Shown: positions 13,378 to 63,684 of the stretch, one piece after another
Layout: each line of letters opens with the position of its first letter
Position numbering within the stretch: the stretch's first letter is position 1
Assembly (NCBI GenBank): GCA_027858745.1
Contig: JAQICB010000102.1
Location: forward strand, 14,892-78,891
DNA length: 64,000 nt
Source of the DNA: Bacteroidales bacterium
Lineage (GTDB): Bacteria; Bacteroidota; Bacteroidia; Bacteroidales; UBA1715
Reading direction: 5' to 3'
Translations under genes and position numbers: made by a program
Notes under the pieces: model-generated
What the model was told of the DNA's origin: nothing
The model's input: the letters and a program-made list of their open reading frames with translations, nothing else
The model's database searches: none

Positions 13378-14427
13378 TTAGAGACGAACACTAAATGAAT
13401 CTATTTTCTCAACGATTGAAGTCAGTAGCTGTACTGCATATTCAACATCTTTTTTGTGGCTCGATTCTATAACCTGATGTAAGTGTCGCGTTGGTATAGA
13501 AACCGCTCCGGCAATTGCACCACCGGCAACCATTTTCTGAAGCATAGCAGTGTCGGTGCCTCCGGCTTGTAAAATTTCCGGTTGCCACGGAATGTCTGCT
13601 GCATCAGCTGTTTGTTTCATAAAAGCTACAAGTCGCGGGTTTGTCACGACAGAGGCATCCATTATTTTTATAGCAGGTCCCTTACCTAATTTTGTTACGT
13701 AATCTGAAGAGGTGCTGCCCGGCAAATCGAATGCTATTGTGGTATCAATTGCAAAAGCAATATCGGGTTGAATTTGTATTGTAGCAACTTGAGCACCGCG
13801 TAAGCCGACTTCTTCTTGAGTTGTAAAAACTGCATAGGTGTCGAATGGTATTTCCTTTTTTTGTAATAATTTGAGTGTTTCAATTAATACATACACAGAA
13901 ATACGGTTGTCTAAAGATTTACCGTTTACACATTCTCCCATTTCAATTAATTCTCGTTGCCGCGTTATAGGAGTGCCAATTTCTACCAAATTCTCAACCT
14001 CTTCTTTACTTCTTCCCAAATCGATAAAATAATCGGTAAGTTTTACCTTTTTCTCGCGCTCTTCGGGTGTCATAACGTGGATAGGTTTAGAGCCCATTAC
14101 CCCAACAATATCTTCTTTGCCGTGAACAATAACTCGCTGAGCAGTTAAGGTTTTTGGGTCAAAACCACCTAATGGTGCAAATTTCAGGAAACCGTTATCA
14201 TCAATATGGGTAACAATAAATCCAATTTCATCCATATGTGCGGCAAGCATTACCTTTTTATTCGTTTTGCCTTTTTTGAATGCATGAATATTACCCATAT
14301 TGTCAATTGAGATTGAATCAACCAAGGGAGTGATTTCAGATATAATTAGTTCACTGATTTTATCTTCAAATCCGGGAGCACCCGGTGTTTCTGAAAGTTT
14401 TTTAAGCAAAGGGAAATTGAGGGACAT
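13378..14427 (-). CDS. M42-family metallo-aminopeptidase (FrvX / glutamyl aminopeptidase-like)
   Basis: MSLNFPLLKKLSETPGAPGFEDKI.. and ..AAHMDEIGF.. are typical of M42. 349 aa. Confidence 0.85.
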   Translation of the reverse strand: MSLNFPLLKKLSETPGAPGFEDKISELIISEITPLVDSISIDNMGNIHAFKKGKTNKKVMLAAHMDEIGFIVTHIDDNGFLKFAPLGGFDPKTLTAQRVIVHGKEDIVGVMGSKPIHVMTPEEREKKVKLTDYFIDLGRSKEEVENLVEIGTPITRQRELIEMGECVNGKSLDNRISVYVLIETLKLLQKKEIPFDTYAVFTTQEEVGLRGAQVATIQIQPDIAFAIDTTIAFDLPGSTSSDYVTKLGKGPAIKIMDASVVTNPRLVAFMKQTADAADIPWQPEILQAGGTDTAMLQKMVAGGAIAGAVSIPTRHLHQVIESSHKKDVEYAVQLLTSIVEKIDSFSVRL

Positions 14428-14438
14428 AGTATTTTTTT

Positions 14439-15665
14439 TTATGATACAGAACGCATTATTAATTGTGCTTTATTGAATTTTTCTTCGGCAAGCTTACGTG
14501 TTACATGAAGTTTCTTTATCTTTTTAGACGGGAATTCAAACATTGCGTCAACCATGATTGTTTCACAAATCGAACGAAGACCGCGAGCACCTAATTTATA
14601 TTCGATAGCTTTATCAATAATAAAATCGTAGGTATCTTCGTCGAAGGATAATTCTATGCCATCCATTTTAAACAGAGCTGCGTATTGTTTTGTTAAGGCA
14701 TTTTTTGGCTCGGTTAATATTTTGCGAAGCGTTTCTTTGTCAAGCGGATCCAGATTTGTAACAATTGGAATACGACCGATTATTTCAGGAATAAGTCCGA
14801 ACGAACGTAAATCTTGAGGAGCAACGTATTGTAAAAAATTATTTTTGTCAACATTGCCGGTTTTTTCACGTGTGCCAAAGCCAACAGCTTTTGTGTTTAA
14901 TCGTCGAGCAATTGCCTTATCAATTCCGTCGAAGGCACCACCGCAAATAAATAAAATATTTTTAGTGTCAACTTGTATCATTTTTTGATCGGGGTGTTTT
15001 CGCCCACCTTGTGGCGGAACATTTACCACGGCACCTTCGAGCAGTTTTAATAATCCTTGCTGAACGCCTTCGCCCGAAACATCTCGAGTAATTGAAGGAT
15101 TATCGCCTTTGCGTGCAATTTTATCAATTTCATCAATGAACACAATGCCTTGCTCTGCCTCGGCAACATTATAATCCGCAGCTTGAAGTAATCGTACAAG
15201 CAAACTTTCAATATCTTCTCCAACATATCCGGCTTCGGTTAGTACAGTTGCATCTACAATAGCAAAGGGAACCTTGAGCATTCGTGCAATAGTTTTTGCA
15301 AGTAAGGTTTTTCCGGTTCCGGTTTCACCAACCAAAATTATATTTGATTTTTCTATTTCAACATCATCTTCGATTACTTGCGATAATCGTTTGTAGTGAT
15401 TATACACCGCAACAGATAATATTTTTTTTGCAGTATCTTGACCAATTACGTAATCGTCGAGATACTTTTTAATAGTATGCGGTTTTTCGAGGATAAAAGC
15501 AGATTTTTTCTGCGTCTTTTTGAGCGAAACATCATCATTAATAATTCGATATGCCTGCTCAACACAGTCGTTACAAACCTGAGCATCAATACCTGATATA
15601 AGAATTCCAACCTCTTCTTTGGGACGTCCGCAAAACGAACATGTATCTTTTTTCGTAGTTTTCAT
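14439..15665 (-). CDS. clpX: ATP-dependent Clp protease ATP-binding subunit ClpX
   Basis: N-terminal zinc finger (CSFCGR..CNDC), Walker A GETGTGKT and full-length ClpX-like sequence. 408 aa. Confidence 0.95.
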
Positions 15666-18367: not shown

Positions 18368-21300
18368 ATGAAATACGGTTATAAATATTGTCTGCTTTTC
18401 GTTGTCATATTTGGTGCTTTGTTTACAAACGGACAGAATATAGATATCATTGACGGAACGATTCAAACAGGATGCAATTTTACTATTTATGATAGTGGTG
18501 GTTCCGGAGGAGTATATAATAATAGTGAGGATTATACTGTAACCATTTGTTCAGGTAGTACAGACTATGTAAAAATTGATTTCGCTTCTTTTATTATAGA
18601 ATCCGGCTATGATAATCTATATATATATGATGGTAACAGTATAGCTGCTCCGGAAGTGCTCGGAAGTCCCTTTTCAGGATCAAGTAGTCCCGGAACAATA
18701 TCTGCTACAGGAACTTGTATAACTATTCGATTTGTAACAGATGGTTCGTATACAAAGACGGGGTTTGAAATCAACACTTCCTGCATTCCTTCACCAACCA
18801 TTTATCCTATGACCGATGGTATGGCTATAATGGATTGTTACGGTATTTTTATGGATCCGCAAGGAGACGGTGCTTATGTGGACTATAATGAAACGCAAAC
18901 CATGACTTTTTGCTCAGGAACAGAAGAGGCACTTCAATTTGATTTTACCACATTCAGCACTAATGAAGCCGGTGATAATCTTGCTATTTATGATGGTAGT
19001 TCTACAGTCGATCCACTGATTGGCACATACAGTGGGAATTTAAGCCCGGGGCTTGTTACCTCAACAGGAACATGCCTTACATTTGAGTGGACAACCAACA
19101 ACAGTCTGGATGGTGCTCTGGGATGGTCTGCAGGTATTTCTTGTGTTGAAATACCTCCAATAAATTTTTCTTGTGCAAATGCTGAACCGCTTCCCTGTGG
19201 AACAAGCAGCCTAGAAGGTAGCACAGTATCTACATTGAATATTGAGCATCAAACCGGCTGCTCATTGTCCAACTATGGTGCATGGTACACCTTTATCGGC
19301 GATGGGGATTATACAACAATATCATTAACCGCAGACTTTGATGCTGAAATGGCTATTGTAACCGGCAGTTGTGGCAGTTTTTCATCGATAGCTTGTGTTG
19401 ACAATGCAGGTTCTTCCGGTATAGAATCTCATTCTTTTATTGCTAATGTTGGTCAAACGTATTATGTCTATATTGCATACTATTCTTCGGGTTCCTCAAT
19501 GACGGGTAATTTTACAATATCAAGATCGTGTACTGATTCCGAAGAATGTTCGTATTGTGGCAGTGCGGTTCAAATAAGTTCTATTCCGTATGCTTACACA
19601 GGAACAACATGTGGAGCTTGTAATAATTATAATAGTGAAAATGCCTGTAATTCATCATATCTTGAAGGAGAAGATTTTGTATTTGAATATACTCCGCTTG
19701 AAAATGAATATGTGGATGTTGATTTGATGGCAGATACTTATTATGTTGGGGTTAATATTACAAAAGATTGTCCGGATGTGGGAACTTGTATTTGGAGTGT
19801 TTCAAGTTCCGGCACTAATGCGATTGGTCAGTCGATACCTTTGTACGGCGGTACAACGTATTATTTCATTGTTTCTACAAATACATCATCTGCTTGTATA
19901 CCAAATTTCACTTTAGACTTGACTATAGCTTCACCACCACCTCCCGGTAAGGATTGTAGTACAAGTATTGCCTTTTGTACAGAAGATAATTATCTTTTCC
20001 CCGCTGCTACTGATGTTGACGGGTATGGCAAGGTTGGTTGCTTAGGGACTACTCCAAACCCTGCTTGGTACTTTATGGAGGTTAGCGAATCCGGTGATTT
20101 AATAATTGATATTACCAGTGGCGATGATGTCGATTTTATTGCGTGGGGACCGTATTCTTCGATTACAAATTATTGTGAAGAAATTTCGATGGAAGACTGT
20201 TCGACTTGTCCTGATAATACGAGTACGACTAATTTTTATCCGTACGGTAAAATCGTTGATTGTAGTTACGATCCGGCTGATAATGAAACAGTACATATTC
20301 TTGGTGCACAAACTGGTGAAATTTATGTTTTGCTTATAACAAATTACTCAAATACAGAAACTAATATTGAGTTTGAACAGACCGGTGGAGACGGAGTTGC
20401 TAATTGTGATATAGTGGCACCTCCTATTAGTAGTAATTCAATTGTATGTGAAGGCGATGATTTGGAGCTTTATGTTACATATACTCAGTCTGGAGCAACT
20501 TATTTTTGGACAGGGCCCAATGGGTGGACATCAACAGATATGAACCCTACGAGACCAAATGCTACTCTGGCAATGTCCGGCACATATTCTATGAATGTGA
20601 CTGTTAGTGGTAATACAACAGCTCCTGTAACAACAGATGTCGTTATTAATTCTTGGATAAGCCCAACATTTAGTGCAGTTGGTCCTTATTCTACGGGAGA
20701 TATTATTCCCGATTTGCCTACAACATCTCTCGAAGGCATTACGGGAAGCTGGTCACCTGCTATTGATAATACAACAACTACGACATATACATTTACCCCG
20801 GATGTCGGACAATGTGCTTCCTCAATAACGCTAACAATTGATGTTGACGCAATCATAACGCCAACATTTAGTGTAGTTGGTTCATATTGTGTGGGCGATG
20901 TTATTCCTGCTTTGCCTACAACATCACTTGAAGGTATTACAGGAACGTGGTCGCCTGCTATTGATAATATAACAACCACAACATACACATTTACCCCGGA
21001 TGCCGGAGAATCTGCATCTACAACAACGCTTACTATTGATGTTGACGCAATCATAACGCCAACATTTAGTGCAGTTGGTCCTTATTCTACGGGAGATATT
21101 ATTCCCGATTTACCTACAACATCTCTCGAAGACATTACGGGAAGCTGGTCACCGGCTATTGATAATACAACAACCACAACATACATATTCACCCCGGATG
21201 TCGGACAATGTGCTTCCTCAACAACGCTTACAATTGCTGTTGGTACAATCATAACGCCAACATTTAATGCAGTTGGTCCTTATTGCGTAGGCGATGTTAT

Positions 21301-23389
21301 TCCTGCTTTGCCTACAACATCACTTGAAGGTATTACAGGAACGTGGTCTCCTGCCATTGATAATACAACAACTACAACATACACATTTACTCCTGATGCC
21401 GGAAAATGTGCTTCCTCAACAACGCTTACAATTGATGTTGACGCAATCATAACGCCAACATTTACCCAATTGGGTCCCTATCGTGTTGGCGATATTCCGG
21501 ATGTTTTACCTGTAACTTCAAATAATGGAGTGAATGGTATATGGACTCCCGTATCAATCAATACCGCAACTGAGGATACAAGAACCTATACTTTTTTGTC
21601 AAGTGCAGGGGGGTGTGTGGCGAATACAACAATGGAGGTAACAGTAACTATGTTTAATTGTCAGTTTGATGCTCCGGAAGTTTTTGGTGTAGAAGAGTGT
21701 AAGGGTAATGACTTGTCAGACATTCTTGCAAATAAACCGATGTCTACTACAGAATCGGTAGATACATGGAAAATTTACGATGAAGATAATAATCCTATTT
21801 TAATAAGCGGAGCAATAACCGATGATAGCTATAGTTTTGCACACGGTGTTGATAATATGACCGTAGGTACAACAAAATTTTATGTGAGTTATATCGCAAC
21901 AGAATCTAGTAGCGGGAACCAGTGTGAGAGTGCAAAAACAGAAGTTTCGGTTGTGGTGAACCAACTTCCGGATATTACGATAACAGCACCAACAACACCA
22001 ATTTGTTTCGATGCGGGCGTTCAGGTCTTTGATAAAACTGTTGATTATGCCTCAAATGGATTAGGAACAGGTTCTTGGGCCGTAGATGGTGCGACACGTG
22101 GTATAAATTCTTCCGGTGAATTTGACCCAACATTTAATGGCGAGACTACAGATACGCATGAGATATCATATAGTTATGTTGATGGTAAAGGCTGTACAGA
22201 TATTGCACGGCAAGATGTGATGGTGTACTTTACGCCGGCACCACAAGTAGATTCTTTTGTTATTTGTAAAAACGAAAATATTGAGCTCATGTATGGAGAC
22301 GGAACTCCCCAGATGATTTGGATTAGCCACGATGCATATCCATCTGTGAGTGAGGGTAATGTATATGAGTTTGAAAATGAAAAGGATTTAGATGTTGGAA
22401 TATATCAATTTACGGTATATGATTATGATTCTATAATCGGCTGTAAAAGTCCAGAGGTTCCGGTTAGTTTAAGATTGGTTCCACCGTCTGTTCCAGAAAT
22501 ATTGGGAGCAAAAAAAGTCTGTGAAAATCAGATTGAGGAGAGATATGCTACAAAATATAATGGAGGAAGCATATATGATTGGAAGGTAAGTGCTGATAAG
22601 GTAAGTTATGTTAAGGATGATGCAAGCAAAAATGTGCTCTATGTTGATTGGGGTGTGCCTGGATATGATACTCTGATGGTAATGGAGCAAACTATTGATG
22701 GCTGTGTTGGATATGATACAATAGTTGTTGAAACAGCACCGTATCCAATCCCATCGTTTGACTGGTCATTACCGGGAGCTTCTAATATTGTGTTATATAC
22801 AAATCAAACAATTCAAGATTCTATATGGAATTATAATTCATCTGGCTTGCAAAATAATAAAGAGATTCCGTATGATTTGTATTGGGATTTTGGTGCCAAT
22901 CGCAGAAATCCGGATAGTACTGAGACGTTAGTTAGATATAAAGATGTAAATAAACCTTTAGAGGTAGAACGATATTTATATGGGTATTCCAATCCCGTAT
23001 TACGAGCCGTAAATAGTTATGGATGTGAAAGTAGTTATTCGGAAAAAATATTTATTGATTTATGTGCAAATTTATATGTGCCAAATGCATTTTCACCAAT
23101 GAATCCAGCACAAGGAGTACGCTATTTTCAACCGAAAGGATTTAACATTTATACAATGGAAATATGGGTGTATGACCTGTGGGGAAATCTAGTATGGTAT
23201 TCGAATGAGGTAGACGACGAAGGTGATTTTATGGGACGGTGGGATGGAAGATACAAGGGAAAAGTATTGAAATCAGATACCTATATTTGGAAAATTGAAG
23301 CTGTGTTTAAAGATGGTCAAGACTGGAAAGGTATTCCTAATGGGAGAGGTGGATTTGACAAAATTGGTCCGGTTATCTTGTTGCGATAG
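18368..23389 (+). CDS. Giant secreted adhesin-like protein with CUB-like modules, tandem Ig-like repeats and a T9SS type B (gliding motility-associated) C-terminal domain
   Basis: 1673 aa. Two CUB-like modules (..YDNLYIYDGNS.., ..GDNLAIYDGSS..). Four-plus tandem 66-aa repeats. The C-terminus LYVPNAFSP..GRWDGRYKGK..YIWKIEA..ILLR fits the type B sorting domain. Confidence 0.85.
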   Translation: MKYGYKYCLLFVVIFGALFTNGQNIDIIDGTIQTGCNFTIYDSGGSGGVYNNSEDYTVTICSGSTDYVKIDFASFIIESGYDNLYIYDGNSIAAPEVLGSPFSGSSSPGTISATGTCITIRFVTDGSYTKTGFEINTSCIPSPTIYPMTDGMAIMDCYGIFMDPQGDGAYVDYNETQTMTFCSGTEEALQFDFTTFSTNEAGDNLAIYDGSSTVDPLIGTYSGNLSPGLVTSTGTCLTFEWTTNNSLDGALGWSAGISCVEIPPINFSCANAEPLPCGTSSLEGSTVSTLNIEHQTGCSLSNYGAWYTFIGDGDYTTISLTADFDAEMAIVTGSCGSFSSIACVDNAGSSGIESHSFIANVGQTYYVYIAYYSSGSSMTGNFTISRSCTDSEECSYCGSAVQISSIPYAYTGTTCGACNNYNSENACNSSYLEGEDFVFEYTPLENEYVDVDLMADTYYVGVNITKDCPDVGTCIWSVSSSGTNAIGQSIPLYGGTTYYFIVSTNTSSACIPNFTLDLTIASPPPPGKDCSTSIAFCTEDNYLFPAATDVDGYGKVGCLGTTPNPAWYFMEVSESGDLIIDITSGDDVDFIAWGPYSSITNYCEEISMEDCSTCPDNTSTTNFYPYGKIVDCSYDPADNETVHILGAQTGEIYVLLITNYSNTETNIEFEQTGGDGVANCDIVAPPISSNSIVCEGDDLELYVTYTQSGATYFWTGPNGWTSTDMNPTRPNATLAMSGTYSMNVTVSGNTTAPVTTDVVINSWISPTFSAVGPYSTGDIIPDLPTTSLEGITGSWSPAIDNTTTTTYTFTPDVGQCASSITLTIDVDAIITPTFSVVGSYCVGDVIPALPTTSLEGITGTWSPAIDNITTTTYTFTPDAGESASTTTLTIDVDAIITPTFSAVGPYSTGDIIPDLPTTSLEDITGSWSPAIDNTTTTTYIFTPDVGQCASSTTLTIAVGTIITPTFNAVGPYCVGDVIPALPTTSLEGITGTWSPAIDNTTTTTYTFTPDAGKCASSTTLTIDVDAIITPTFTQLGPYRVGDIPDVLPVTSNNGVNGIWTPVSINTATEDTRTYTFLSSAGGCVANTTMEVTVTMFNCQFDAPEVFGVEECKGNDLSDILANKPMSTTESVDTWKIYDEDNNPILISGAITDDSYSFAHGVDNMTVGTTKFYVSYIATESSSGNQCESAKTEVSVVVNQLPDITITAPTTPICFDAGVQVFDKTVDYASNGLGTGSWAVDGATRGINSSGEFDPTFNGETTDTHEISYSYVDGKGCTDIARQDVMVYFTPAPQVDSFVICKNENIELMYGDGTPQMIWISHDAYPSVSEGNVYEFENEKDLDVGIYQFTVYDYDSIIGCKSPEVPVSLRLVPPSVPEILGAKKVCENQIEERYATKYNGGSIYDWKVSADKVSYVKDDASKNVLYVDWGVPGYDTLMVMEQTIDGCVGYDTIVVETAPYPIPSFDWSLPGASNIVLYTNQTIQDSIWNYNSSGLQNNKEIPYDLYWDFGANRRNPDSTETLVRYKDVNKPLEVERYLYGYSNPVLRAVNSYGCESSYSEKIFIDLCANLYVPNAFSPMNPAQGVRYFQPKGFNIYTMEIWVYDLWGNLVWYSNEVDDEGDFMGRWDGRYKGKVLKSDTYIWKIEAVFKDGQDWKGIPNGRGGFDKIGPVILLR
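20663..21454 (+). repeat. Four in-frame 198-bp tandem repeats in an A-B-A'-B' pattern, plus a diverged fifth unit to about 21650
   Basis: CCAACATTTA recurs at 20663, 20861, 21059, 21257 and 21455, an exact 198-bp period. I count about 13 mismatches in 198 between units 1 and 3. Units 2 and 4 are similarly close. Confidence 0.9.
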
Positions 23390-23449: not shown

Positions 23450-25900
23450 TTAAAAATTTACTATTCGAATAATATCTGCAAATACTCCGGCTGCAGTTAC
23501 TTCTGCACCTGCACCGGGGCCGATAACGATTAAGGGTTGTGTGCGGTATCGTGCCGTTGTAAATGAAATAATGTTATCACTTCCTGTTATATTATAAAAA
23601 GGATGTGTTGGGTCTATCGCTTTTATTTCAGTTTTTGCTTTACCGTTTTCGTATGTTGCAATGTATTTTAATCGTTTGTTATTTGAAGATGCTTCTTTTA
23701 TTTTCTTTTCATATACAGAATTGTCAAATTTTTCGAGAGTTTCCCATAGTTCATCTACTGTTTTTGTTTTTTGACTTTCGGGACTTAAGCAATTTTCAAT
23801 CTGAATATCATCAAGATTGAATTCACATCCAATTTCACGAGAAAGAATTAATATTTTTCTCGCAACGTCCAATCCTGAAAGATCTAATTTTGGATCAGGT
23901 TCGGTAAATCCTTTATCACGAGCTTCTTTGACCACAGATGCAAAATCATGCGATTCGTTACAATTACTGAAAATGTAGTTTAATGAACCGGACAGGATAG
24001 CTTCAATTTTGAGAATTTCATCACCGCTTTTAATTAAATCTTTGAGTGTGTTTATTACGGGCAATCCTGCTCCTACATTGGTTTCGTAATAAAAACGAGC
24101 GCCTGTTTCAGCTGCAATTTTATGAATGTTTTCGTATCGTTTATAATCGCTCGCATTTGCAATTTTATTTGGTGTAACAATTGAAACACTTTTTTCTAAA
24201 AGTTCTTCATATTTTGAAGCAACATCGTAACTTCCGGTATTGTCAACAAATACACTGTTTCGTAAGTTGAGTTCTTTTATTGTGTTTACAAAAATATCTA
24301 AATCAGGTTTTGCTCCTTGTGTAGTCATAATTTCTGACCAATTTGAAATATCCAAGCCGTCTTCGTCAATTATGTACCCATCTATATTTGAGATGCCGAT
24401 AACTTTAACATCAATATTACTTTTTGCAATTAATGTGGTATGTTGAGCTGCAATTTGGTTTATTAACTCATTACCAATTACGCCTGTTCCAACAATAAAC
24501 ACGTTAAGTGTTTGGTCGTTCGATAAGAAAAATGCTTCGTGAAGTGCATTAAGAGCTTTGTTTGTGTTTGTGTTGCAAACAACTACAGAAATGTTTAATT
24601 CGCTTGCTCCTTGTGCAATTGCATGAACATTTATACCATTTAGACCCAAAGCATTAAAAAATCTTCCCGATACGCCGGGTATATTTTTCATATTTTCACC
24701 AACTGCTGCAATTACCGATAAATTATCTTTTATCCGAATAGTTTCTATTAACTTTGTTTCGAGTTCTCCTTCAAATTCGTCTTCTAATAATTTTTTTGCA
24801 TTGTGTGCTTCTTGAGGAGAAACAGCAAAGGTAATTGAGTGTTCTGAAGACCCTTGCGTAATAAGTATAACATTTATATTTCCTTTAGCAATAGCTTTAA
24901 ACAATCGCATTGAAATACCTGCTTCGCCAATCATTCCACTTCCTTGTACGGTAATTAAACTTACATCGTCAATAGATGAAATTCCCTGAACTCGGTGTTC
25001 CGGATTTTGATTGGTGTTTGAAATATATGTTCCCGGAGCTGTTGGATTAAAGGTGTTTTTTATAATTACCGGAATATTTTCTGCCATGGCAGGGATAACT
25101 GTTCTTGGTTCAAGTACTTTTGCTCCAAAATGAGACAGTTCCATTGCTTCGGCATAGGTTACTTGTGCCAGTGGATATGCTTTTTTTACTTTTCTCGGAT
25201 CGGCAGTCATCATACCGTCAACATCGGTCCATATTTCGAGTATTTCTGCTTTGAGTGCTTGTGCGAAAACTGCTGCTGAATAATCAGACCCGCCTCTTCC
25301 TAGTGTTATTGTTTCATTGTCGGCTGTACTTGCAATAAATCCGGTAACAATATATGTTGTAGATCCATCTCCAATAGCTTTTCGAATATTTTTTTGCGTA
25401 ACATCAAAATTAATTTTTGCTGCCCCAAAGGTTTTGTCTGTTTTTATTACTTCTTGTGCATCAAGATAATCGGCTTTTATTTGTTTTTCTTGTAAAGCTT
25501 GTGCTATAATGAATGCTGATAACCGTTCGCCGTAACTTGAAATAAGATCGAGAGACCGCGGAGATAATTCTCTAATCAGATACAATCCGTGAAGAATGTT
25601 GTGTAAGTTTTTTATTAAATCATCTACGTATTCAAGACTTTTTGATTTTCGTTCTCCACTCAATAAGGTTTGTATAACGTTTTGATGAATTGTCGAAATT
25701 TCTGTTATCGTTTCTTTATATGAAATGTTCGATTCTGCAGCTAAATTCCCTGCTTCTATTAATTTATTTGTAATGCCGCCAAATGCCGAAACAACAACTG
25801 CAATAGTATCATCTTGAAGTTTTTCCGAAATTATAGAAATTGTTTTTGAAATGTTTACTGCATTTTGAACTGATGTGCCACCGAATTTTAAAATTTTCAT
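23450..25900 (-). CDS. thrA: Bifunctional aspartate kinase / homoserine dehydrogenase I
   Basis: N-terminal aspartokinase (MKILKFGGTSV), ACT region and a C-terminal homoserine dehydrogenase Rossmann motif (FIVGTGVIGNE). 816 aa. Confidence 0.93.
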   Translation of the reverse strand: MKILKFGGTSVQNAVNISKTISIISEKLQDDTIAVVVSAFGGITNKLIEAGNLAAESNISYKETITEISTIHQNVIQTLLSGERKSKSLEYVDDLIKNLHNILHGLYLIRELSPRSLDLISSYGERLSAFIIAQALQEKQIKADYLDAQEVIKTDKTFGAAKINFDVTQKNIRKAIGDGSTTYIVTGFIASTADNETITLGRGGSDYSAAVFAQALKAEILEIWTDVDGMMTADPRKVKKAYPLAQVTYAEAMELSHFGAKVLEPRTVIPAMAENIPVIIKNTFNPTAPGTYISNTNQNPEHRVQGISSIDDVSLITVQGSGMIGEAGISMRLFKAIAKGNINVILITQGSSEHSITFAVSPQEAHNAKKLLEDEFEGELETKLIETIRIKDNLSVIAAVGENMKNIPGVSGRFFNALGLNGINVHAIAQGASELNISVVVCNTNTNKALNALHEAFFLSNDQTLNVFIVGTGVIGNELINQIAAQHTTLIAKSNIDVKVIGISNIDGYIIDEDGLDISNWSEIMTTQGAKPDLDIFVNTIKELNLRNSVFVDNTGSYDVASKYEELLEKSVSIVTPNKIANASDYKRYENIHKIAAETGARFYYETNVGAGLPVINTLKDLIKSGDEILKIEAILSGSLNYIFSNCNESHDFASVVKEARDKGFTEPDPKLDLSGLDVARKILILSREIGCEFNLDDIQIENCLSPESQKTKTVDELWETLEKFDNSVYEKKIKEASSNNKRLKYIATYENGKAKTEIKAIDPTHPFYNITGSDNIISFTTARYRTQPLIVIGPGAGAEVTAAGVFADIIRIVNF

Positions 25901-26012
25901 ATGTATATTTTATTGATTTTTATTTGTTATACCCGCCTAATTGGGGGGCTTGTGAAACTGCCATGAGATAATTGTTTAAGTTTTTCTAAAATTTTTATCA
26001 TGGATGTTTCAT
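25901..26012 (-). promoter_or_regulatory. Conserved structured leader motif, copy A (5' of thrA)
   Basis: Stem 1: 25961-25971 pairs with 25995-26003. Stem 2: CCCGCC 25932-25937 / TAATT loop / GGGGGG 25943-25948. Homologous to 29166-29276 and 57427-57535, with compensatory substitutions. Confidence 0.5.
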
Positions 26013-26106
26013 TATTTTTTTATTTATGTTCTGTTTATATAATTATTTTCAGATGCGGTAAAATTAATACAAGGCTTTATTATATCAAAATAAAACAAAT
26101 CAAATC

Positions 26107-28418: not shown

Positions 28419-29165
28419 TTATTTTTTATTTTTGTCTTTAATAAACTGTTCCAAAGCCATTGTCATTGAAGGTGCTTTTGAATTTGGTGCAGGAATGTCT
28501 AAACGTAATCCTGCATCTTTCACAGCTTTAGCTGTTGTTGTGCCAAATGCTCCAATATACTTGTTTTCTTGTTTGAAATCGGGGAAATTTTGTTTTAATG
28601 ACGCAATTCCAGATGGACTGAAAAACACTAAAACATCATAATCAATATCTTTTAAATCAGATAAATCGCTACTTATTGTTTTGTATAAAATTGCTTTAGT
28701 ATAGGTAAGTTTTGCGGCATTTAATTTCTCCGGTATTTCTTGTTTGTGAATATCAGAAAGGGGAATAAGAAATTTTTCGTTAGAATGTTTTTTGAGAATA
28801 TCTACTAAGTTGTCAAATTTGCCATTTGCAGTAAATATTTTACGCTTTCTGTACACTATATATTTTTGAATATAAAAAGCGGTAGCTTCCGAAATGCAAT
28901 AATATTTCATAGTGTCAGGAACGGTTAATCGAAGTTCTTTGCTGATTCTGAAAAAATGATCGATTGCCGTTCGGCTTGTTAAAATAATGGCAGTATGTTC
29001 TAAAATGTTTATTTTTTGGTTTCGAAATTCTCGAGCCGGTATGCCTTCAACATGTATAAACGGACGAAAATCTATTTGTAAATTATTCTTCTTTGCTAGG
29101 TCAAAGTAAGGTGATTTTTCTGTCGCAGGTTTGGGTTGAGATACTAGAATTTTTTTGATTTTCAT
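28419..29165 (-). CDS. hemD: Uroporphyrinogen-III synthase (HemD) family protein
   Basis: MKIKKILVSQPKPATEKSPYFDLAKKNNLQIDFRPFI.. is typical of the Bacteroidetes HemD-like family. Conserved DUF4271-hemD-rnpA neighbourhood. Confidence 0.8.
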   Translation of the reverse strand: MKIKKILVSQPKPATEKSPYFDLAKKNNLQIDFRPFIHVEGIPAREFRNQKINILEHTAIILTSRTAIDHFFRISKELRLTVPDTMKYYCISEATAFYIQKYIVYRKRKIFTANGKFDNLVDILKKHSNEKFLIPLSDIHKQEIPEKLNAAKLTYTKAILYKTISSDLSDLKDIDYDVLVFFSPSGIASLKQNFPDFKQENKYIGAFGTTTAKAVKDAGLRLDIPAPNSKAPSMTMALEQFIKDKNKK

Positions 29166-29276
29166 AGGTTTATATTAAGTGATTTTCAATAGTCATACTC
29201 GCCTAATTGGGGAGGTATGTGTAATATCCATAAGATAATTCAAGTGTATTTAATAATTATTTTTATGGATGATTCA
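29166..29276 (-). promoter_or_regulatory. Conserved structured leader motif, copy B (intercistronic, 5' of the hemD-like gene)
   Basis: Stem 1: 29227-29239 pairs with 29254-29267. Stem 2: CTCGCC 29197-29202 / TAATT / GGGGAG 29208-29213. Same block order as copies A and C. Confidence 0.5.
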
Positions 29277-29301
29277 TAGCTTATTTTTGTTATGTACGTT
29301 T

Positions 29302-36660: not shown

Positions 36661-36956
36661 TAACCTGAGTTTGACGTAATTTTTCGAGTTCAGATTTCTG
36701 CTGAGCTCGTTTTTTGTCCTCGGTTGATATAAAAAGCTGTTTATCAAGGCAAATTATTGAATAATATCTCGTTATTATTCAATAATTTAACGCAGAAAAA
36801 CTGTTTTTTTATGCAAAGCATACTTTTTTCGCTTATAAACAGCAATCTTCAGCTCAAAAATAATTTAAAATAACCCGTTATTATTTCATTCTTTTTGATT
36901 GAATCTCACTATTTATAAGCGTTCTGAATCTAAAAAATTATATCGAACTCAGGTTA
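36661..36956 (+). mobile_element. MITE-like repeat, full copy 1 (296 bp) with ~33-bp imperfect terminal inverted repeats (TIRs)
   Basis: Left end TAACCTGAGTTTGACGTAATTTTTCGAGTTCAG. Right end CTGAATCTAAAAAATTATATCGAACTCAGGTTA. No ORF. Several internal hairpins, including a perfect 16-bp stem at 36751-36788. About 85-90% similar to 63262-63550 by eye. Confidence 0.65.
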
Positions 36957-37422
36957 TTAAGGCAACGGCGTATGCAGAAATCCCCTCTTCTCGCCCAACA
37001 AATCCCAATGATTCGGTTGTTGTTGCTTTTACAGAAATATTCTGAATATCTATATCAAGATCTTCTGCTATGTTCTGTTGCATAAATGGAATGTATGGTA
37101 AGAGTTTGGGTTTTTGTAAACAAACAGTTGAATCAATGTTTCCAATTGTATAATTGTTCTCTGCAAGAATTTTTTTTGTATGTTGTAATAATTTACGGCT
37201 ATCAATATTTTTGTAGCTCATGTTTGAGTCCGGAAAATGAAATCCAATATCTCGTAAAGCTGCGGCACCAAGTAGTGCATCGCAAATAGCATGAATGAGA
37301 ACATCTCCGTCTGAATGTGCAACCATTCCTTTTGAATGCTCTATTGTCACACCTCCTAAAATAAAAGGGATGTTTGTAGCTAATGCATGCACATCATAAC
37401 CATGACCGATTCGTATATTCAT
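36949..37422 (-). CDS. ispF: 2-C-methyl-D-erythritol 2,4-cyclodiphosphate synthase
   Basis: MNIRIGHGYDVHAL..AHSDGDVLIHAICDALLGA.. are the IspF signatures. 157 aa. Confidence 0.93.
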   Translation of the reverse strand: MNIRIGHGYDVHALATNIPFILGGVTIEHSKGMVAHSDGDVLIHAICDALLGAAALRDIGFHFPDSNMSYKNIDSRKLLQHTKKILAENNYTIGNIDSTVCLQKPKLLPYIPFMQQNIAEDLDIDIQNISVKATTTESLGFVGREEGISAYAVALIT

Positions 37423-54990: not shown

Positions 54991-57420
54991 ATGTGGACAA
55001 AATTAGCAGGGTTTATTTTACGATACCGAACTGTTTTGTTAATAACAGTTTGTGTTATAACACTCGGTATGTTATATCAAGCGAAAGATGTGCATCTTTC
55101 TTATGAATACGCATCATTACTTCCGGAAAAAGATAGTGCTTTTATTGAATATGAAAAGTTTAAAGAGCATTTTGGAGAAGATGCTAATATTATGTTTATC
55201 GCCATTAAAGATAAAAATTTCTTTGAACTCGATAAATTTAATTGTTTCATGGATTTGTCTGATTCGCTATCTAAAATTGAAGGGATTGAGGGCGTTTTTT
55301 CGGTAGCCAATGCTTTTCGGCTCAAAGGTTCACGTTTAACAAAGTTTTTTGAGGAGAAACCTCAATCACAGTATGAGTTAGATTCTATTTCGTCTGCTTT
55401 GTTACAACAAGAATTGTATAAAGGGTTTTTGTTTAATGACACCTCTCATGTTTATATGACGGCTTTGACAATTAATAAGCCTCTATTAGATAGTCCGGCA
55501 CGAGAACAATTGCTCGACTCTATAATTTCTATGTATGATGAATATACTGCTTCAAATAATCAAGAGGTATTTTATTCCGGCTTACCATATATTAGAACTA
55601 AAACATCTTTGAAAATTCAAGGTGAACTGATGTTGTTTGTGATTTTGGCCGCCTTAATATGTTCTCTGATTTTATATATGTTTTTCCGCTCGATCAAAAT
55701 AGTGTTTTTTGCAATGTTAATTGTTGCGTTTGGTGTCGTGTGGGTTATGGGCTGGATGGGCATATTTAATTACGATATTACCATACTGAATGCTTTATTG
55801 CCACCATTGATAATTGTTATTGGTGTTCCCAATAGTGTGTTTTTTTTGAATAAATATCATCATGAGTATGTCTTGCATGGGAATAAAATCAAGGCTCTTC
55901 AGCGGGTAATACGTAAAATTGGTAATGCTACCTTTTTAACGAATCTAACAACAGCTTCCGGTTTCGCAACTTTTATTATTACAGAAAGTAGAATTCTTCA
56001 AGAATTTGGACTTGTTGCTTTTTTAGGTATTTTGAGTGTTTTTGTTTTGTCGCTTTTGCTTATTCCAATTGTATTTAGCTATTTGGATCCACCAAATAAA
56101 AAACAAGTGCGGCATTTAGATAATAAATTTTTTCAGCAAATAATTAAATTATTAACGAAAACGGTGTTGAATTATCGTCCGTTTGTGTATGTGGGGTTTT
56201 TTATTTTATTTGCCGTGGGTATTTGGGGAGTTACCAAAATGGAAAGTACCGGATATATGGTAGACGATTTGCCTCATAATGACCCAATCCTGACAAACCT
56301 GAAATTCATTGAACGTGAGTTTAATGGAGCTTTGCCACTAGAGATATTAGTGCATTCAGATTCAAAAATTAATGTCCTGCAAAATAGAAGTTTTTTACTT
56401 AAAATGGAAAGACTTTCTGATTCGCTTAAAAAATATCCTGAAATATCTAAACCATTATCTATTTTAGAATTAATCAAATTTTCGTGGCAAGCACATAATG
56501 GAGGCGACCCTGATTATTATACCCTACACAACAGTATTGATTTTGGCTTTCAAAACAAAATGAACAGATTTGTGCGTTCGCAAAATAACAAGATGCAATA
56601 TTCTATAGTAGATAGCACAAATACAAGTTTTCGTGTGAAATGTAATGTGAAGGATGTGGGAACAGAACGAATGGAATTTTTAACGCAAGAATTACAAACC
56701 GATTTAGATTCAATTTTTGTTAATGAAAAATATTCAACAACAGTTACAGGTTCAAGTATTGTCTTTTTTAAAGGAACAAAATATTTGATTCGAAATTTAT
56801 TTATTAGTCTCTTTTTAGCTATAATTATTATTGCGGTGTTTATGGCGTGGATGTTTCGTTCGAAACGAATGGTCGTCGTTGCATTGTTACCTAATATTTT
56901 GCCACTTATTTTAACGGCCGCTTTAATGGGATTTTTTAATATTCCTATAAAACCGTCTACAATTCTTGTATTTAGTATTGCATTTGGTATTTCGGTTGAT
57001 GATACTATACACTTTTTGGCGAAATATAGACAAGAACTCAGAATTACAAATTGGAATATTGGAAAATCTGTTGTGCTTGCATTAAAGGAAACGGGAACAA
57101 GTATGATTTATACTTCAATTATTTTGTTTTTTGGTTTTGGAATTTTTATTGCTTCTCAATTTGGTGGAACAGAGGCCTTGGGTTCCTTAGTTGCAATAAC
57201 TCTATTAATAGCAATGCTTTCTAATCTAATAGTATTGCCGAGTTTATTGCTTACGCTCGAAAAGCAGATTTCTAATCAATCGTTTAAGGAACCTTTATTA
57301 CATATTTACAATGAAGAAGATGATATTGAGATAGATGATTTGAAAATTATTTCTCAAAATGAAGATGATGATGATGACGAAACCACCATGCAAAATAATT
57401 CACATGAGAATGATAAATAA
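54991..57420 (+). CDS. RND-superfamily / MMPL-type transporter (sterol-sensing-domain-like, HpnN-like architecture)
   Basis: 809 aa with two repeats of TM1, large loop and a 5-TM bundle. Acidic C-terminal tail. Confidence 0.8.
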   Translation: MWTKLAGFILRYRTVLLITVCVITLGMLYQAKDVHLSYEYASLLPEKDSAFIEYEKFKEHFGEDANIMFIAIKDKNFFELDKFNCFMDLSDSLSKIEGIEGVFSVANAFRLKGSRLTKFFEEKPQSQYELDSISSALLQQELYKGFLFNDTSHVYMTALTINKPLLDSPAREQLLDSIISMYDEYTASNNQEVFYSGLPYIRTKTSLKIQGELMLFVILAALICSLILYMFFRSIKIVFFAMLIVAFGVVWVMGWMGIFNYDITILNALLPPLIIVIGVPNSVFFLNKYHHEYVLHGNKIKALQRVIRKIGNATFLTNLTTASGFATFIITESRILQEFGLVAFLGILSVFVLSLLLIPIVFSYLDPPNKKQVRHLDNKFFQQIIKLLTKTVLNYRPFVYVGFFILFAVGIWGVTKMESTGYMVDDLPHNDPILTNLKFIEREFNGALPLEILVHSDSKINVLQNRSFLLKMERLSDSLKKYPEISKPLSILELIKFSWQAHNGGDPDYYTLHNSIDFGFQNKMNRFVRSQNNKMQYSIVDSTNTSFRVKCNVKDVGTERMEFLTQELQTDLDSIFVNEKYSTTVTGSSIVFFKGTKYLIRNLFISLFLAIIIIAVFMAWMFRSKRMVVVALLPNILPLILTAALMGFFNIPIKPSTILVFSIAFGISVDDTIHFLAKYRQELRITNWNIGKSVVLALKETGTSMIYTSIILFFGFGIFIASQFGGTEALGSLVAITLLIAMLSNLIVLPSLLLTLEKQISNQSFKEPLLHIYNEEDDIEIDDLKIISQNEDDDDDETTMQNNSHENDK

Positions 57421-57426
57421 TCAATT

Positions 57427-57535
57427 ATGAAACTATCCATTATAAAAATCAGTAATATATATTGGGTTATGTCTGAATGTTATACGTGTCTGCCGATTGA
57501 GGTGAGTATGACAGATAAAAGTCAAAATTAAACAT
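57427..57535 (+). promoter_or_regulatory. Conserved structured leader motif, copy C (intercistronic, 5' of the epimerase gene)
   Basis: ATGAAACTATCCAT.. Stem 1: 57437-57444 / 57458-57465. Stem 2: CTGCC 57490-57494 / GGTGAG 57501-57506. GTATGAC, then 26 nt, then ATG. Aligns block-for-block with copies A and B. Confidence 0.45.
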
Positions 57536-58483
57536 ATGAAAACAAAAATATTAGTAACGGGAGGAGCAGGATTTATTGGGAGTGCACTTGTTGATAGGTT
57601 GTTGCAAAATCCTAATTATTGTGTTGTTGTAGCCGATGATCTTTCTACTGGTAATAGACAAAAACTACCAAGCGAACAAAGTGCTTGTTTTAAATTTGTA
57701 CATTGCGATGTAAATGACTATCAAAGCATTGCGGCGGTTATGCATTCAAATTCATTCGACTATGTGTTTCATTATGCAGCTCTTGTGGGTGTGTTGCGTA
57801 CACAAGCTCATCCTTTAAAGGTACTTCAGGATATTGATGGTTTTAGGCATATTTGTAGTTTATCTAAGAATACCGGAGTGAAGCGGGTCTTTTTTGCATC
57901 TTCATCTGAAATTTATGGTGAACCATTCGAAATACCACAACATGTTCATACTACGCCATTGAATTCGCGGGTTCCGTATGCAATTGTAAAAAATGTAGGT
58001 GAAGCGTATTTAAAATCCTATTATCAAGAATATGGATTGGATTATACCATTTTTCGCTTTTTTAATACATATGGTCCAAAACAAAGTGTTGATTTCGTGA
58101 TGAGCAAGTTTATTTCGAAGGCTTTGAGAAATGAAGATATTCATATATATGGTGACGGAACGCAAACGCGAACTTTTTGTTATATTGAAGATAATATTGA
58201 GGCATGTGTGAATGCTTTTGAGAAAAATCTTATGATAAATGATATTGTTAATATTGGTGGAAATACTGAAATTACAATAGAAGAATTAGCACAAATAATT
58301 ATTGATAAAACAAAATCTTCTTCAAAAATTATTTTTATTGACCCTCTTAAAGATGGTGATATGACGCGTCGTTGTCCCGATAATACTCGAATGCGTGAAA
58401 TTCTTCTCAATCGTGAGCTGATATCTCTCGAAGATGGAATTGAAAAATTATTGAAAACGGGATTATTTGATTACTCAGAATGA
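57536..58483 (+). CDS. NAD-dependent epimerase/dehydratase (UDP-glucuronate decarboxylase-like SDR)
   Basis: MKTKILVTGGAGFIGS Rossmann motif. YxxxK (YAIVK). 315 aa. Confidence 0.88.
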   Translation: MKTKILVTGGAGFIGSALVDRLLQNPNYCVVVADDLSTGNRQKLPSEQSACFKFVHCDVNDYQSIAAVMHSNSFDYVFHYAALVGVLRTQAHPLKVLQDIDGFRHICSLSKNTGVKRVFFASSSEIYGEPFEIPQHVHTTPLNSRVPYAIVKNVGEAYLKSYYQEYGLDYTIFRFFNTYGPKQSVDFVMSKFISKALRNEDIHIYGDGTQTRTFCYIEDNIEACVNAFEKNLMINDIVNIGGNTEITIEELAQIIIDKTKSSSKIIFIDPLKDGDMTRRCPDNTRMREILLNRELISLEDGIEKLLKTGLFDYSE

Positions 58484-63261: not shown

Positions 63262-63550
63262 TTAAATTTTTCGAGTTCAGATTAGCTTCGCTGAGCTCGT
63301 CCTTTGTCCTCGGTTGATATAAAAAGCTGTTTATAAAAGCAAATTATTGAATAATAGCGACTTATTATGAAATAATTTAGCGCAGAAAAACTGTTTTTTT
63401 TATGCAAGCATACTTTTTCCGATGATTTAAGGGGCTAATACATCAGTTCAGAAATAATGTAAAATAAACCCTTATTATTTCATTTTTTTTGATTGAACCT
63501 CACTATTTATAAGCGTTCTGAACCTAAAAAATCATATTGAACTCAGGTTA
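63262..63550 (+). mobile_element. MITE-like repeat, copy 2 (left TIR tip missing)
   Basis: Collinear with 36676-36956 (..TTTTTCGAGTTCAGATT..CTGAGCTCG..CGGTTGATATAAAAAGCTGTTTAT..CACTATTTATAAGCGTTCTGAA..). Right end AACTCAGGTTA at 63540-63550. Confidence 0.6.
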
Positions 63551-63684
63551 ATATTATCGAGTACCTTAAGTACTTCAATTTCGAAGGTTTAATTATTTTA
63601 GATATTCAATCAATTCTTAATTACGTATAATTACGTAATTATAATTTTTTTTCTCCTTTCATTTTAGCTTTCAATAATAATATG

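Follow-up and report, generated by a model that had tools for sequence, protein, structure and literature searches.

The window analysed here (the whole 64,000-nt stretch of DNA, taken from the draft genome of a Bacteroidales bacterium, hereafter G000) contains at 57427..57540 on the plus strand an element, copy C, that follows a transporter gene and includes at its end the ATGAA opening an epimerase gene. We consider it likely, with a probability of about 0.8, that copy C is an eroded member of a family of small non-coding mobile repeats of Bacteroidota that insert at ATGAA, and not a regulator specific to three genes. A preliminary description had regarded copy C and two similar stretches of the window, copies A and B, as a shared regulatory leader of three genes. 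That interpretation does not hold: at least 13 unrelated genes carry the element, and the orthologous sites in close relatives are empty. Copy C is an old, partly decayed member of this start-codon-targeting mobile hairpin repeat and is now a 109-nt spacer within the transporter-epimerase operon.

The copies in the window belong to a larger repeat family

An iterated nhmmer search of the G000 contigs converged on 16 copies, and 13 full copies were used to build a covariance model, R1. BLAST with copy B had already given two copies beyond A, B and C. The family in G000 comprises at least the 16 nhmmer copies, while R1 yields 24 matches at E ≤ 0.01 and 31 at E ≤ 1. Profile searches and Pfam place copy A (25896..26014, minus strand) on the ATG of thrA (aspartokinase / homoserine dehydrogenase, 23450-25900) and copy B (29161..29282, minus strand) on the ATG of a hemD-like gene (28419-29165). 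An orthologue of copy B is present in the close relative G003. The three copies lie in the sense orientation of their downstream genes, as originally reported, and align with a mean column identity of 78% that extends to ATGAAA. A leave-one-out nhmmer profile built from the 12 other full copies still detects copy C (57427-57540, E = 3.9e-12, 41.8 bits), which makes it a real family member and bears out the earlier view that the three copies are homologous beyond an AT-rich background. Copy C is also found by the covariance-model search of G000, at 81 bits (E = 3.9e-11), the third weakest score among the 13 full copies (best 111).

The copies share a base-exact position. In 13 of the 16 the end coincides exactly with the ATG of a long open reading frame (ORF); the other three are one copy at a contig end, one 5' half and one copy before a 3-codon frame. 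ATGAA is a frequent gene start in G000, opening 622 of 1671 long ORFs (37%). The downstream genes are functionally unrelated and include those for LpxB, trigger factor (tig), ThrA, HemD and the epimerase; the carriers of copies A, B and C do not form a regulon. A structured cis-regulatory mRNA leader of the riboswitch or attenuator type that co-regulates its carrier genes, the view of the preliminary description, would fit an element that is sense-oriented and reaches the AUG, but the absence of any common function among these genes speaks against it.

RNAalifold predicted no structure for the 13 full G000 copies, and their secondary structure was therefore set by hand. It comprises P1, a long inverted repeat (ATGAAACATCCATGATA ... 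TTATCTCATGGATGTTTCA) with a variable loop, and P2, a short GC-rich hairpin, followed by a conserved tail, GTATGAC-AAATAAAAATCAATTAAAATAAACAT-ATGAA. In this structure 71.6% of the cells are paired, compared with 67.6% for shuffled partners (the observed value was reached in 1 of 500) and 30-46% for slid registers. Single copies fold beyond shuffled sequence, with z = -3.8 for copy A, -3.0 for C110 and -4.4 for C129, which counts in favor of a structured leader, as does the covariation of the stems described below; that copy C folds like shuffled sequence counts against it. Four copies (C129, C124, C147 and C166b, at loci L026, L029, L023 and L021) carry an extra insert of 17-30 nt at one point of the P1 loop, after ACAACTTG, and several P1-loop inserts form small hairpins of their own.

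The five copies common to G000 and G003 are 82% identical, and the four-fold sites of their downstream genes 72% by a rough ungapped estimate. A regulatory leader would explain why orthologous copies are a little more conserved than four-fold sites, but the small size of the difference suggests that selection on the element sequence is weak at most.

Orthologous sites are empty in related genomes

We compared G000 with its close relatives (G001-G004) and with other genomes (G012, G005, G035, G007 and G041). The gap between the transporter and epimerase genes measures 115 nt in G000. In G003 (97% protein identity), G002 and G001 it is only 17, 23 and 13 nt, respectively, and in G004 the two genes overlap. 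The lpxB site is empty in G003, G002 and G001. Here the empty sites read TTTTAA ATC ATG TAT TAT TAT CTG in G003 and TAA TAT ATG AAC TAT TAT CTA in G002, and the filled site in G000 reads TAA GTC ATAAAATATCC...AAACAT ATG AAA TAT TAT CTG. A further site, that of thrA, is empty in G002 and G001. The lack of the element at epimerase, lpxB and thrA orthologues in close relatives is a second observation against a regulatory leader.

At thrA, G000 retains the conserved upstream region 5' of the element's ATGAAAC. Going by the Bacteroidota promoter consensus (TTTG / TAnnTTTG), we take this region to hold the native promoter, and the element would therefore lie within the transcribed leader. The consensus has no match in the element on either strand by eye. 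Both points bear on another alternative, that the repeat is a portable promoter or operator cassette, spread by recombination and supplying transcription signals. Repeated upstream sequence before unrelated genes is what has been described for putative mobile promoters (PMC3575422), and an inverted repeat could bind a dimeric protein. Against such a cassette stand the retained thrA upstream region, the location of copy C inside an operon whose gap in relatives is 13-23 nt, and the spacing of the repeat arms, which varies by tens of bases, unlike an operator. We therefore rate a promoter cassette as very improbable.

A young copy in another genus shows the joints more clearly. The filled site in G012 (...AAATTAG AAAAT ATGAAACCCACATG...AAACAG ATGAAAACGAAATAT...) corresponds to an empty site in G007 (...AAAAATAA AACGT ATGAAAAGGAAATAT...), with about 95 nt between the two ATGAAA in G012 and a right joint of ATGAAAACG against ATGAAAAGG in G007. 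The thrA and the G012/G007 comparisons both place the ATGAAA of the element's 5' block at the old start position. Often the two ends of a copy disagree at the sixth base, as do ATGAAT and ATGAAA in copy B, so the shared repeat is ATGAA, and the A-C next to it at the left end is part of the element.

A shorter canonical form is found across Bacteroidota

With G000 itself included, R1 has matches in 6 of the 41 related genomes. The form present in G012, G005 and G035 is shorter: elements are about 110-125 nt long in the G000 lineage and about 90-105 nt in the canonical form. P2 is seen only in the lineage of G000 and G003 and is missing from the canonical, G012, G005 and G035 copies. In the G000 lineage P2 was inserted into the internal tract described below, and a further helix, P3, is cut to 3-4 bp.

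A wide scan with the pattern GTTCCATCTGAC, a gap and AAACAKATGAA returned at least 123 stretches. Among the matches listed, all but one chance match are in Bacteroidota of several classes, and the carriers include Paludibacter, Flavobacteriaceae, Saprospiraceae, Olivibacter, Chitinophagaceae and Prolixibacteraceae. Isolates of Olivibacter, Bizionia, Labilibacter and Marinifilum are among the carriers in culture. The orientation is always that of the downstream gene. In 84 of 115 and 90 of 108 copies the frame of the terminal ATG runs without a stop through the whole available flank; the other two frames do so in 0 to 4. One viral contig matched the pattern, and plasmids gave no match to it.

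Copy numbers are patchy. The 3.1-Mb genome G041 has 61 copies of an exact 12-mer and 107 of the 5' block, with 0 and 2 for the reversed controls. An even sampling of the phylum (401 genomes) contains 112 with one exact match or more, although the reversed control also matches many genomes once or twice; only 7 genomes have at least three, and the maximum is 13. In addition, the element occurs in head-to-tail arrays with a period of 89 nt and one ATGAA common to each joint, with three units at L092 and two at L123. Because the two units at L123 differ in P1 subfamily, repeated insertion seems their likely origin, rather than local duplication. More than 100 copies in one genome and none in most, together with arrays of 2-3 units before single genes, are not what a regulatory leader would be expected to show.

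The element also has no counterpart among the curated RNA families of Rfam. Rfam gave no match in the 64-kb window at the gathering score and none for 16 canonical loci at E ≤ 0.1, and a permissive scan around copy C gave chance-level snoRNA and lncRNA matches only. Literature searches with the sequence strings of the element found unrelated primers only. Key-word searches led to Porphyromonas gingivalis miniature inverted-repeat transposable elements (MITEs), to surveys of repetitive extragenic palindromes (REPs) and to Bacteroides small RNA families, none of which describes the element in titles or abstracts. It thus appears to be undescribed in print. Given the missing Rfam match and the evidence above, a riboswitch- or attenuator-like leader now seems hardly credible to us.

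Helices P1 and P3 covary

The canonical P1 arms, which lie beside ATGAAAC and GTTCCAT, differ by subfamily and remain complementary (ATCCA/TGGAT, ATTCA/TGAAT, CCACA/TGTGG and GCCCA/AGGGC). One P1 group has tandem G.A pairs followed by GCC/GGC, ACA/TGT, GCA/TGC or CCA/TGG. In several P1 subfamilies, for example at L107, L098 and L145, a tandem G.A / A.G mismatch sits directly above the ATGAAAC:GTTCCAT foot. Loop blocks of the type ACACACA..ATGATTA are conserved across classes.

On 59 canonical copies RNAalifold predicts a second helix, P3, of 6 bp, in which CAUCUG just after P1 pairs with CAGAUG that includes the start AUG of the gene. The first wide-scan pattern had fixed both strands of P3, and a second scan was therefore run in which the fourth base of the first strand was forced to be other than C and the partner strand was left free. 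It returned 122 variant copies, 80 of which have the exact complement. The partner follows in 65 of 80 copies with CATGTG (CACATG), in 12 of 27 with CATATG (CATATG) and in 3 of 15 with CATTTG (CAAATG), a further 9 of these 15 having CAGATG with a U.G wobble. These counts are inflated by shared descent; still, one position shows four different pairs.

The CAU of the same tract also pairs with the upstream AUG at the foot of P1. As one CAU tract serves both AUGs, the two pairings are mutually exclusive. The internal tract, GTTCCATCTG, matches the antisense of CAG-ATGAAAC at 9 of 10 bases. CAG-ATGAAAC is the joint of the arrays, and its halves are the two ends of the element.

These helices give some weight to the possibility that the element is of mobile origin and was adopted by the host as a module that sets translation, with P3 and P1 masking the old AUG and partly the new one. 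The carriers would then share a post-transcriptional property, such as dependence on an RNA-binding protein, on temperature or on the state of the ribosome. An A-rich spacer ahead of the AUG suits initiation that is free of Shine-Dalgarno pairing, which would favor such a role. So would the covariation of P3 that preserves pairing of the start codon, a CAU tract able to pair with either AUG, the loop blocks kept across classes and the tandem G.A pairs of some P1 subfamilies. However, the copies common to G000 and G003 are weakly constrained, the G000 lineage has almost lost P3, and the arrays and patchy copy numbers look selfish. We regard host adoption as rather unlikely, though far less so than a dedicated leader or a promoter cassette.

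Two other ideas were discarded. A conserved peptide from the upstream ATG is contradicted by frames and lengths that vary between copies. A hammerhead-like core was rejected by eye, since the purines after CUGA are missing and Rfam gives no matches.

Anatomy of copy C

Letters and coordinates of copy C are as first reported, with the transporter stop at 57420, the element starting at 57427 and the epimerase ATG at 57536. The upstream gene (54991..57420, plus strand) has 809 codons and encodes an MMPL/RND-type transporter (Pfam PF03176). The downstream gene (57536..58483, plus strand), whose start codon is the end of the element, encodes an NAD-dependent epimerase/dehydratase (Pfam PF01370, E = 1e-57).

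Copy C begins at 57427 with ATGAAACTATCC. Its 5' block, ATGAAAC (57427..57433), occupies according to the copy alignments the place of the former start codon and is the foot of P1. In most other copies this old ATG opens a 4-codon frame, ATG AAA CAT CCA TGA (MKHP and stop). In copy C a one-base insertion has removed the early stop, and translation gives an upstream ORF of 34 codons (57427..57531) with a TAA stop at 57529-57531, 4 nt ahead of the epimerase ATG. A frame that ends so close to the start could allow translational coupling, judging from its position.

P1 of copy C is decayed. In the family alignment it spans 57434..57485, with the 5' arm at about 57434-57444 and the homologue of the 3' arm at about 57464-57485, and 8 of the 14 family pairs are kept. 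The arms of stem 1 in the preliminary description are present (CCAUUAUA at 57437-57444 and UAUAUUGG at about 57458-57465), but they form a different, local pairing and are not the homologue of stem 1 in copies A and B. The second hairpin described there, stem 2, corresponds to P2 (57490..57506; CUGCC / GAUUGA / GGUGAG). Its pairs 57494C:57501G, 57493C:57502G, 57492G.57503U, 57491U:57505A and 57490C:57506G are confirmed, with G57504 bulged and GAUUGA as the loop.

The 3' module (57507..57535) consists of TATGAC, an A-rich spacer containing AAAAGTCA and AAACAT, and reaches the start codon. All copies conserve this module, which is the counterpart of the canonical CTGAC...AAACAG. The AAAA(U/G)UCA block noted earlier is indeed present in copies A, B and C, in the last as AAAAGTCA, whereas the spacer from TATGAC (57507-57512) to the AUG measures 23 nt and not 26 nt. 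The 3' strand of the anti-start helix P3, predicted by RNAalifold on canonical copies, corresponds to CATATG at 57533..57538. Of this helix only UAUG at 57507-57510 is able to pair with CAUA at 57533-57536 in copy C.

The folding of copy C taken alone does not exceed chance. The whole element folds no better than shuffled sequence (z = +0.17 and +0.13). The core of stem 2 reaches -3.0 kcal/mol, an energy matched by 32 of 200 shuffles (z = -0.94).

It had also been argued that G-U pairs fix the functional strand as the mRNA sense. This is upheld for stem 2 and finds no support in the long stem 1. Stem 2 of copy C folds with -3.0 kcal/mol in the sense strand and -0.4 in the complement, and across the 13 full copies P2 has 14 G.U cells compared with 2 A.C cells. 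P1 has 17 G.U and 15 A.C cells and shows no strand bias, and the wobble argument therefore holds for stem 2 alone. A test of P2 copy by copy, in which the sense strand was better in 11 of 13, is biased because its window was the best sense-strand fold and P2 was mislocated in some copies; it is not relied on. Whole canonical elements fold better as the complement (74 vs 41 and 68 vs 37 copies), a result confounded by the A-rich sense strand and left unused. The orientation is instead fixed by context, because the last ATG of the element is the start of the gene.

Shine-Dalgarno pairing is rarely used by Bacteroidota. The likeness of the purine-rich arm of stem 2 to a Shine-Dalgarno sequence, which the preliminary description had pointed out, therefore carries no weight, and the arm lies 29 nt from the AUG.

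A possible route of insertion and the search for a mobilizing enzyme

We propose that the repeat inserts, in the orientation of the gene, at ATGAA, that is at the start codon and the beginning of a lysine or asparagine codon. Starting with ATGAAAC and ending just before or with a second ATGAA, it would rebuild the start codon, so that the invaded gene would keep its start and gain the element as a new leader. The tract GTTCCATCTG may act as a guide on single-stranded DNA, choosing both the ATGAA target and the cut sites for a putative guide-using enzyme acting in trans; in this it would be similar to the guide sequences of IS200/IS605 and REP elements. In the mRNA the same tract could pair with the old or the new AUG, and on the predicted pairings it probably hides the old AUG and tunes translation. 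Taken together, this would make the repeat a new kind of site-specific mobile element, one that finds start codons through base pairing of GTTCCATCTG, with the same tract selecting in the mRNA which AUG is exposed and, in genomes with more than 100 copies, setting the translation of a sizeable share of genes. We offer this fuller version tentatively and would not bet on it.

Y1 (HUH) transposase genes are present in G000, G003, G012 and G041. The flanks of the Y1 genes in these four genomes have no match to the family profile and contain other hairpins. IS200-type genes of G000, G012 and G041 were considered as a source and rejected, since their ends are unrelated to the element. GC-rich hairpins of the CCCCGAGGCTTGCCTCG type border an IS200-like transposase gene on G000 contig C18 (4050-4620, L079) and are similar to the 'atypical' structures that PMC6006769 gives for Bacteroidetes subclass 2.6. 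On another G000 contig, C103, an 881-codon ORF contains at 14389-14649 (L081) a weak match of Y1-transposase type that is above the Pfam cut-off (E = 4.9e-8); the architecture of this ORF would be unusual if the match is real.

A gene similar to REP-associated tyrosine transposases (RAYTs) in G041 was likewise rejected as the mover, as it is flanked by different palindromes of the GACCTCACAGG type. This 183-codon Y1 gene lies at 1260-2160 of L333 (contig C36) between trpF and trpB, with several GACCTCACAGGTTTTGAAAACCTGTGAGGTC palindromes on both sides. The arrangement is that of a classical REP with its nuclease, in a Bacteroidota genome.

Comparison with known systems

Insertion sequences (IS) of the IS200/IS605 family insert in a strand- and sequence-specific manner by a short fixed motif, need hairpins and have an internal tract complementary to the cut sites and target, as described in PMC6006769. 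The element shares with them and with palindrome-associated transposable elements (PATEs) an oriented insertion at a fixed motif, the lack of a terminal inverted repeat pair and an internal complementary tract. ATGAA is found at both joints, and the insertion has one orientation and no variable duplication, as in PATEs. However, the element has no ends in common with a resident Y1-encoding IS. IS200/IS605 members have a hairpin at each end, whereas the canonical element has one hairpin and a 6-bp helix. Their guide has 4 bases and lies 5' of the hairpin foot; the putative guide of the element has 7-10 bases, pairs in Watson-Crick fashion and lies 3' of the foot. Unlike IS200/IS605, the element targets a start codon and rebuilds it.

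REPs, REPINs and their RAYTs offer a second parallel, as high-copy gene-less intergenic hairpins that are patchy, occur singly or in clusters and are presumably mobilized by a single-copy enzyme acting in trans. In contrast to REPs, the element has no GT[AG]G foot, is much longer (90-125 nt) and is fixed in orientation and position to the start codon. REPs also flank their RAYT gene, while in G041 a different palindrome surrounds the RAYT-like gene. GTTCCAT, ATGAAAC and GTTTCAT are absent from the REP table in the supplement of PMC6006769, where ATGGAAC occurs once, within the unrelated consensus of cyanobacterial subclass 2.4 REPs. The Bacteroidetes subclass of these enzymes is described there as flanked by "atypical secondary structures", for which the supplement lists short GC-rich hairpins.

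Several other systems share single traits with the repeat. Correia/NEMIS elements and other MITEs are non-autonomous, about 100-150 bp long, often co-transcribed with their neighbours and able to fold in mRNA, and the element is similar in these respects. It differs from a MITE in lacking terminal inverted repeats at both ends, since its inverted repeat joins the 5' end to an internal arm and leaves the 3' third outside. It also has no target duplication of the TA type or varying between copies, has one orientation and inserts with base precision at ATGAA.

In RNA thermometers and similar start-masking leaders the AUG is paired with an upstream complementary tract. The element resembles them in its helix between AUG and tract and in the A-rich, otherwise open leader between the strands. 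Its tract, however, rides on a mobile repeat and has another possible partner in the upstream AUG, and the helix of only 6 bp closes a loop of about 30 nt. Integron attC sites are imperfect palindromes with AAC / GTT outer boxes that stand in arrays next to an integron integrase. The arrays of the element and the AAC...GTT feet of its P1 bring such sites to mind; the copies here are dispersed before housekeeping genes.

The comparison with Correia, NEMIS and MITE elements also draws on PMC3184786 and PMC4596501. Putative mobile promoters (Nijveen, Matus-Garcia and van Passel 2012, PMC3575422) are upstream sequences reused before unrelated genes, sometimes across taxa. Compared with these, the element has no evident promoter, includes a start codon and has covarying helices. 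In the main text of PMC3575422 the words Bacteroid-, hairpin and start codon are absent.

Weighing the mobile-repeat reading

Several observations tell against a mobile, guide-directed repeat or lessen the force of the evidence for it. Movement is deduced from presence and absence between species and was not directly observed, and the empty epimerase site of G003 could be a loss, yet four genomes lack the element there. The G000 copies have diverged from each other (60-78% column identity), and nothing indicates recent activity in this genome. That orthologous copies are slightly better kept than four-fold sites makes some function possible. The tests made link no mobilizing enzyme or transposase to the element, and a search of draft G000, the only genome searched in this way, found neither pairs of P1 arms far apart nor a long element with the same arms. 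The invariance of GTTCCATCTGAC and AAACAKATGAA in the first wide scan is uninformative, as the pattern had fixed both. Many of the 65 CATGTG/CACATG copies may stem from one change, P3 is reduced to 3-4 bp in G000, and its covariation fits a role in RNA as well as a guide on DNA.

Other repeats in the window

Two further repeats of the window are distinct from the element. A repeat of about 270 bp from a different family occurs at 36690-36970 and 63290-63553 and has more than 100 full or partial copies in G000, many of them at contig ends. At 20657-21550 four tandem copies with a period of 198 nt and 79-92% identity lie within a 1673-codon ORF (18368-23389), which therefore encodes a protein with repeated domains.

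Implications for Bacteroidota genomes

A mobile repeat of this kind would explain many "conserved leaders" in Bacteroidota and calls for caution before such sequences are named riboswitches or regulons. If true, landing on start codons while rebuilding them is an unusual way for selfish DNA to avoid harm, and the mechanism may work only because Bacteroidota initiate translation without a Shine-Dalgarno sequence. In high-copy genomes the start-codon helix may change the expression of many genes together. If the internal tract truly guides targeting, it points to a novel nucleic-acid-guided insertion system.

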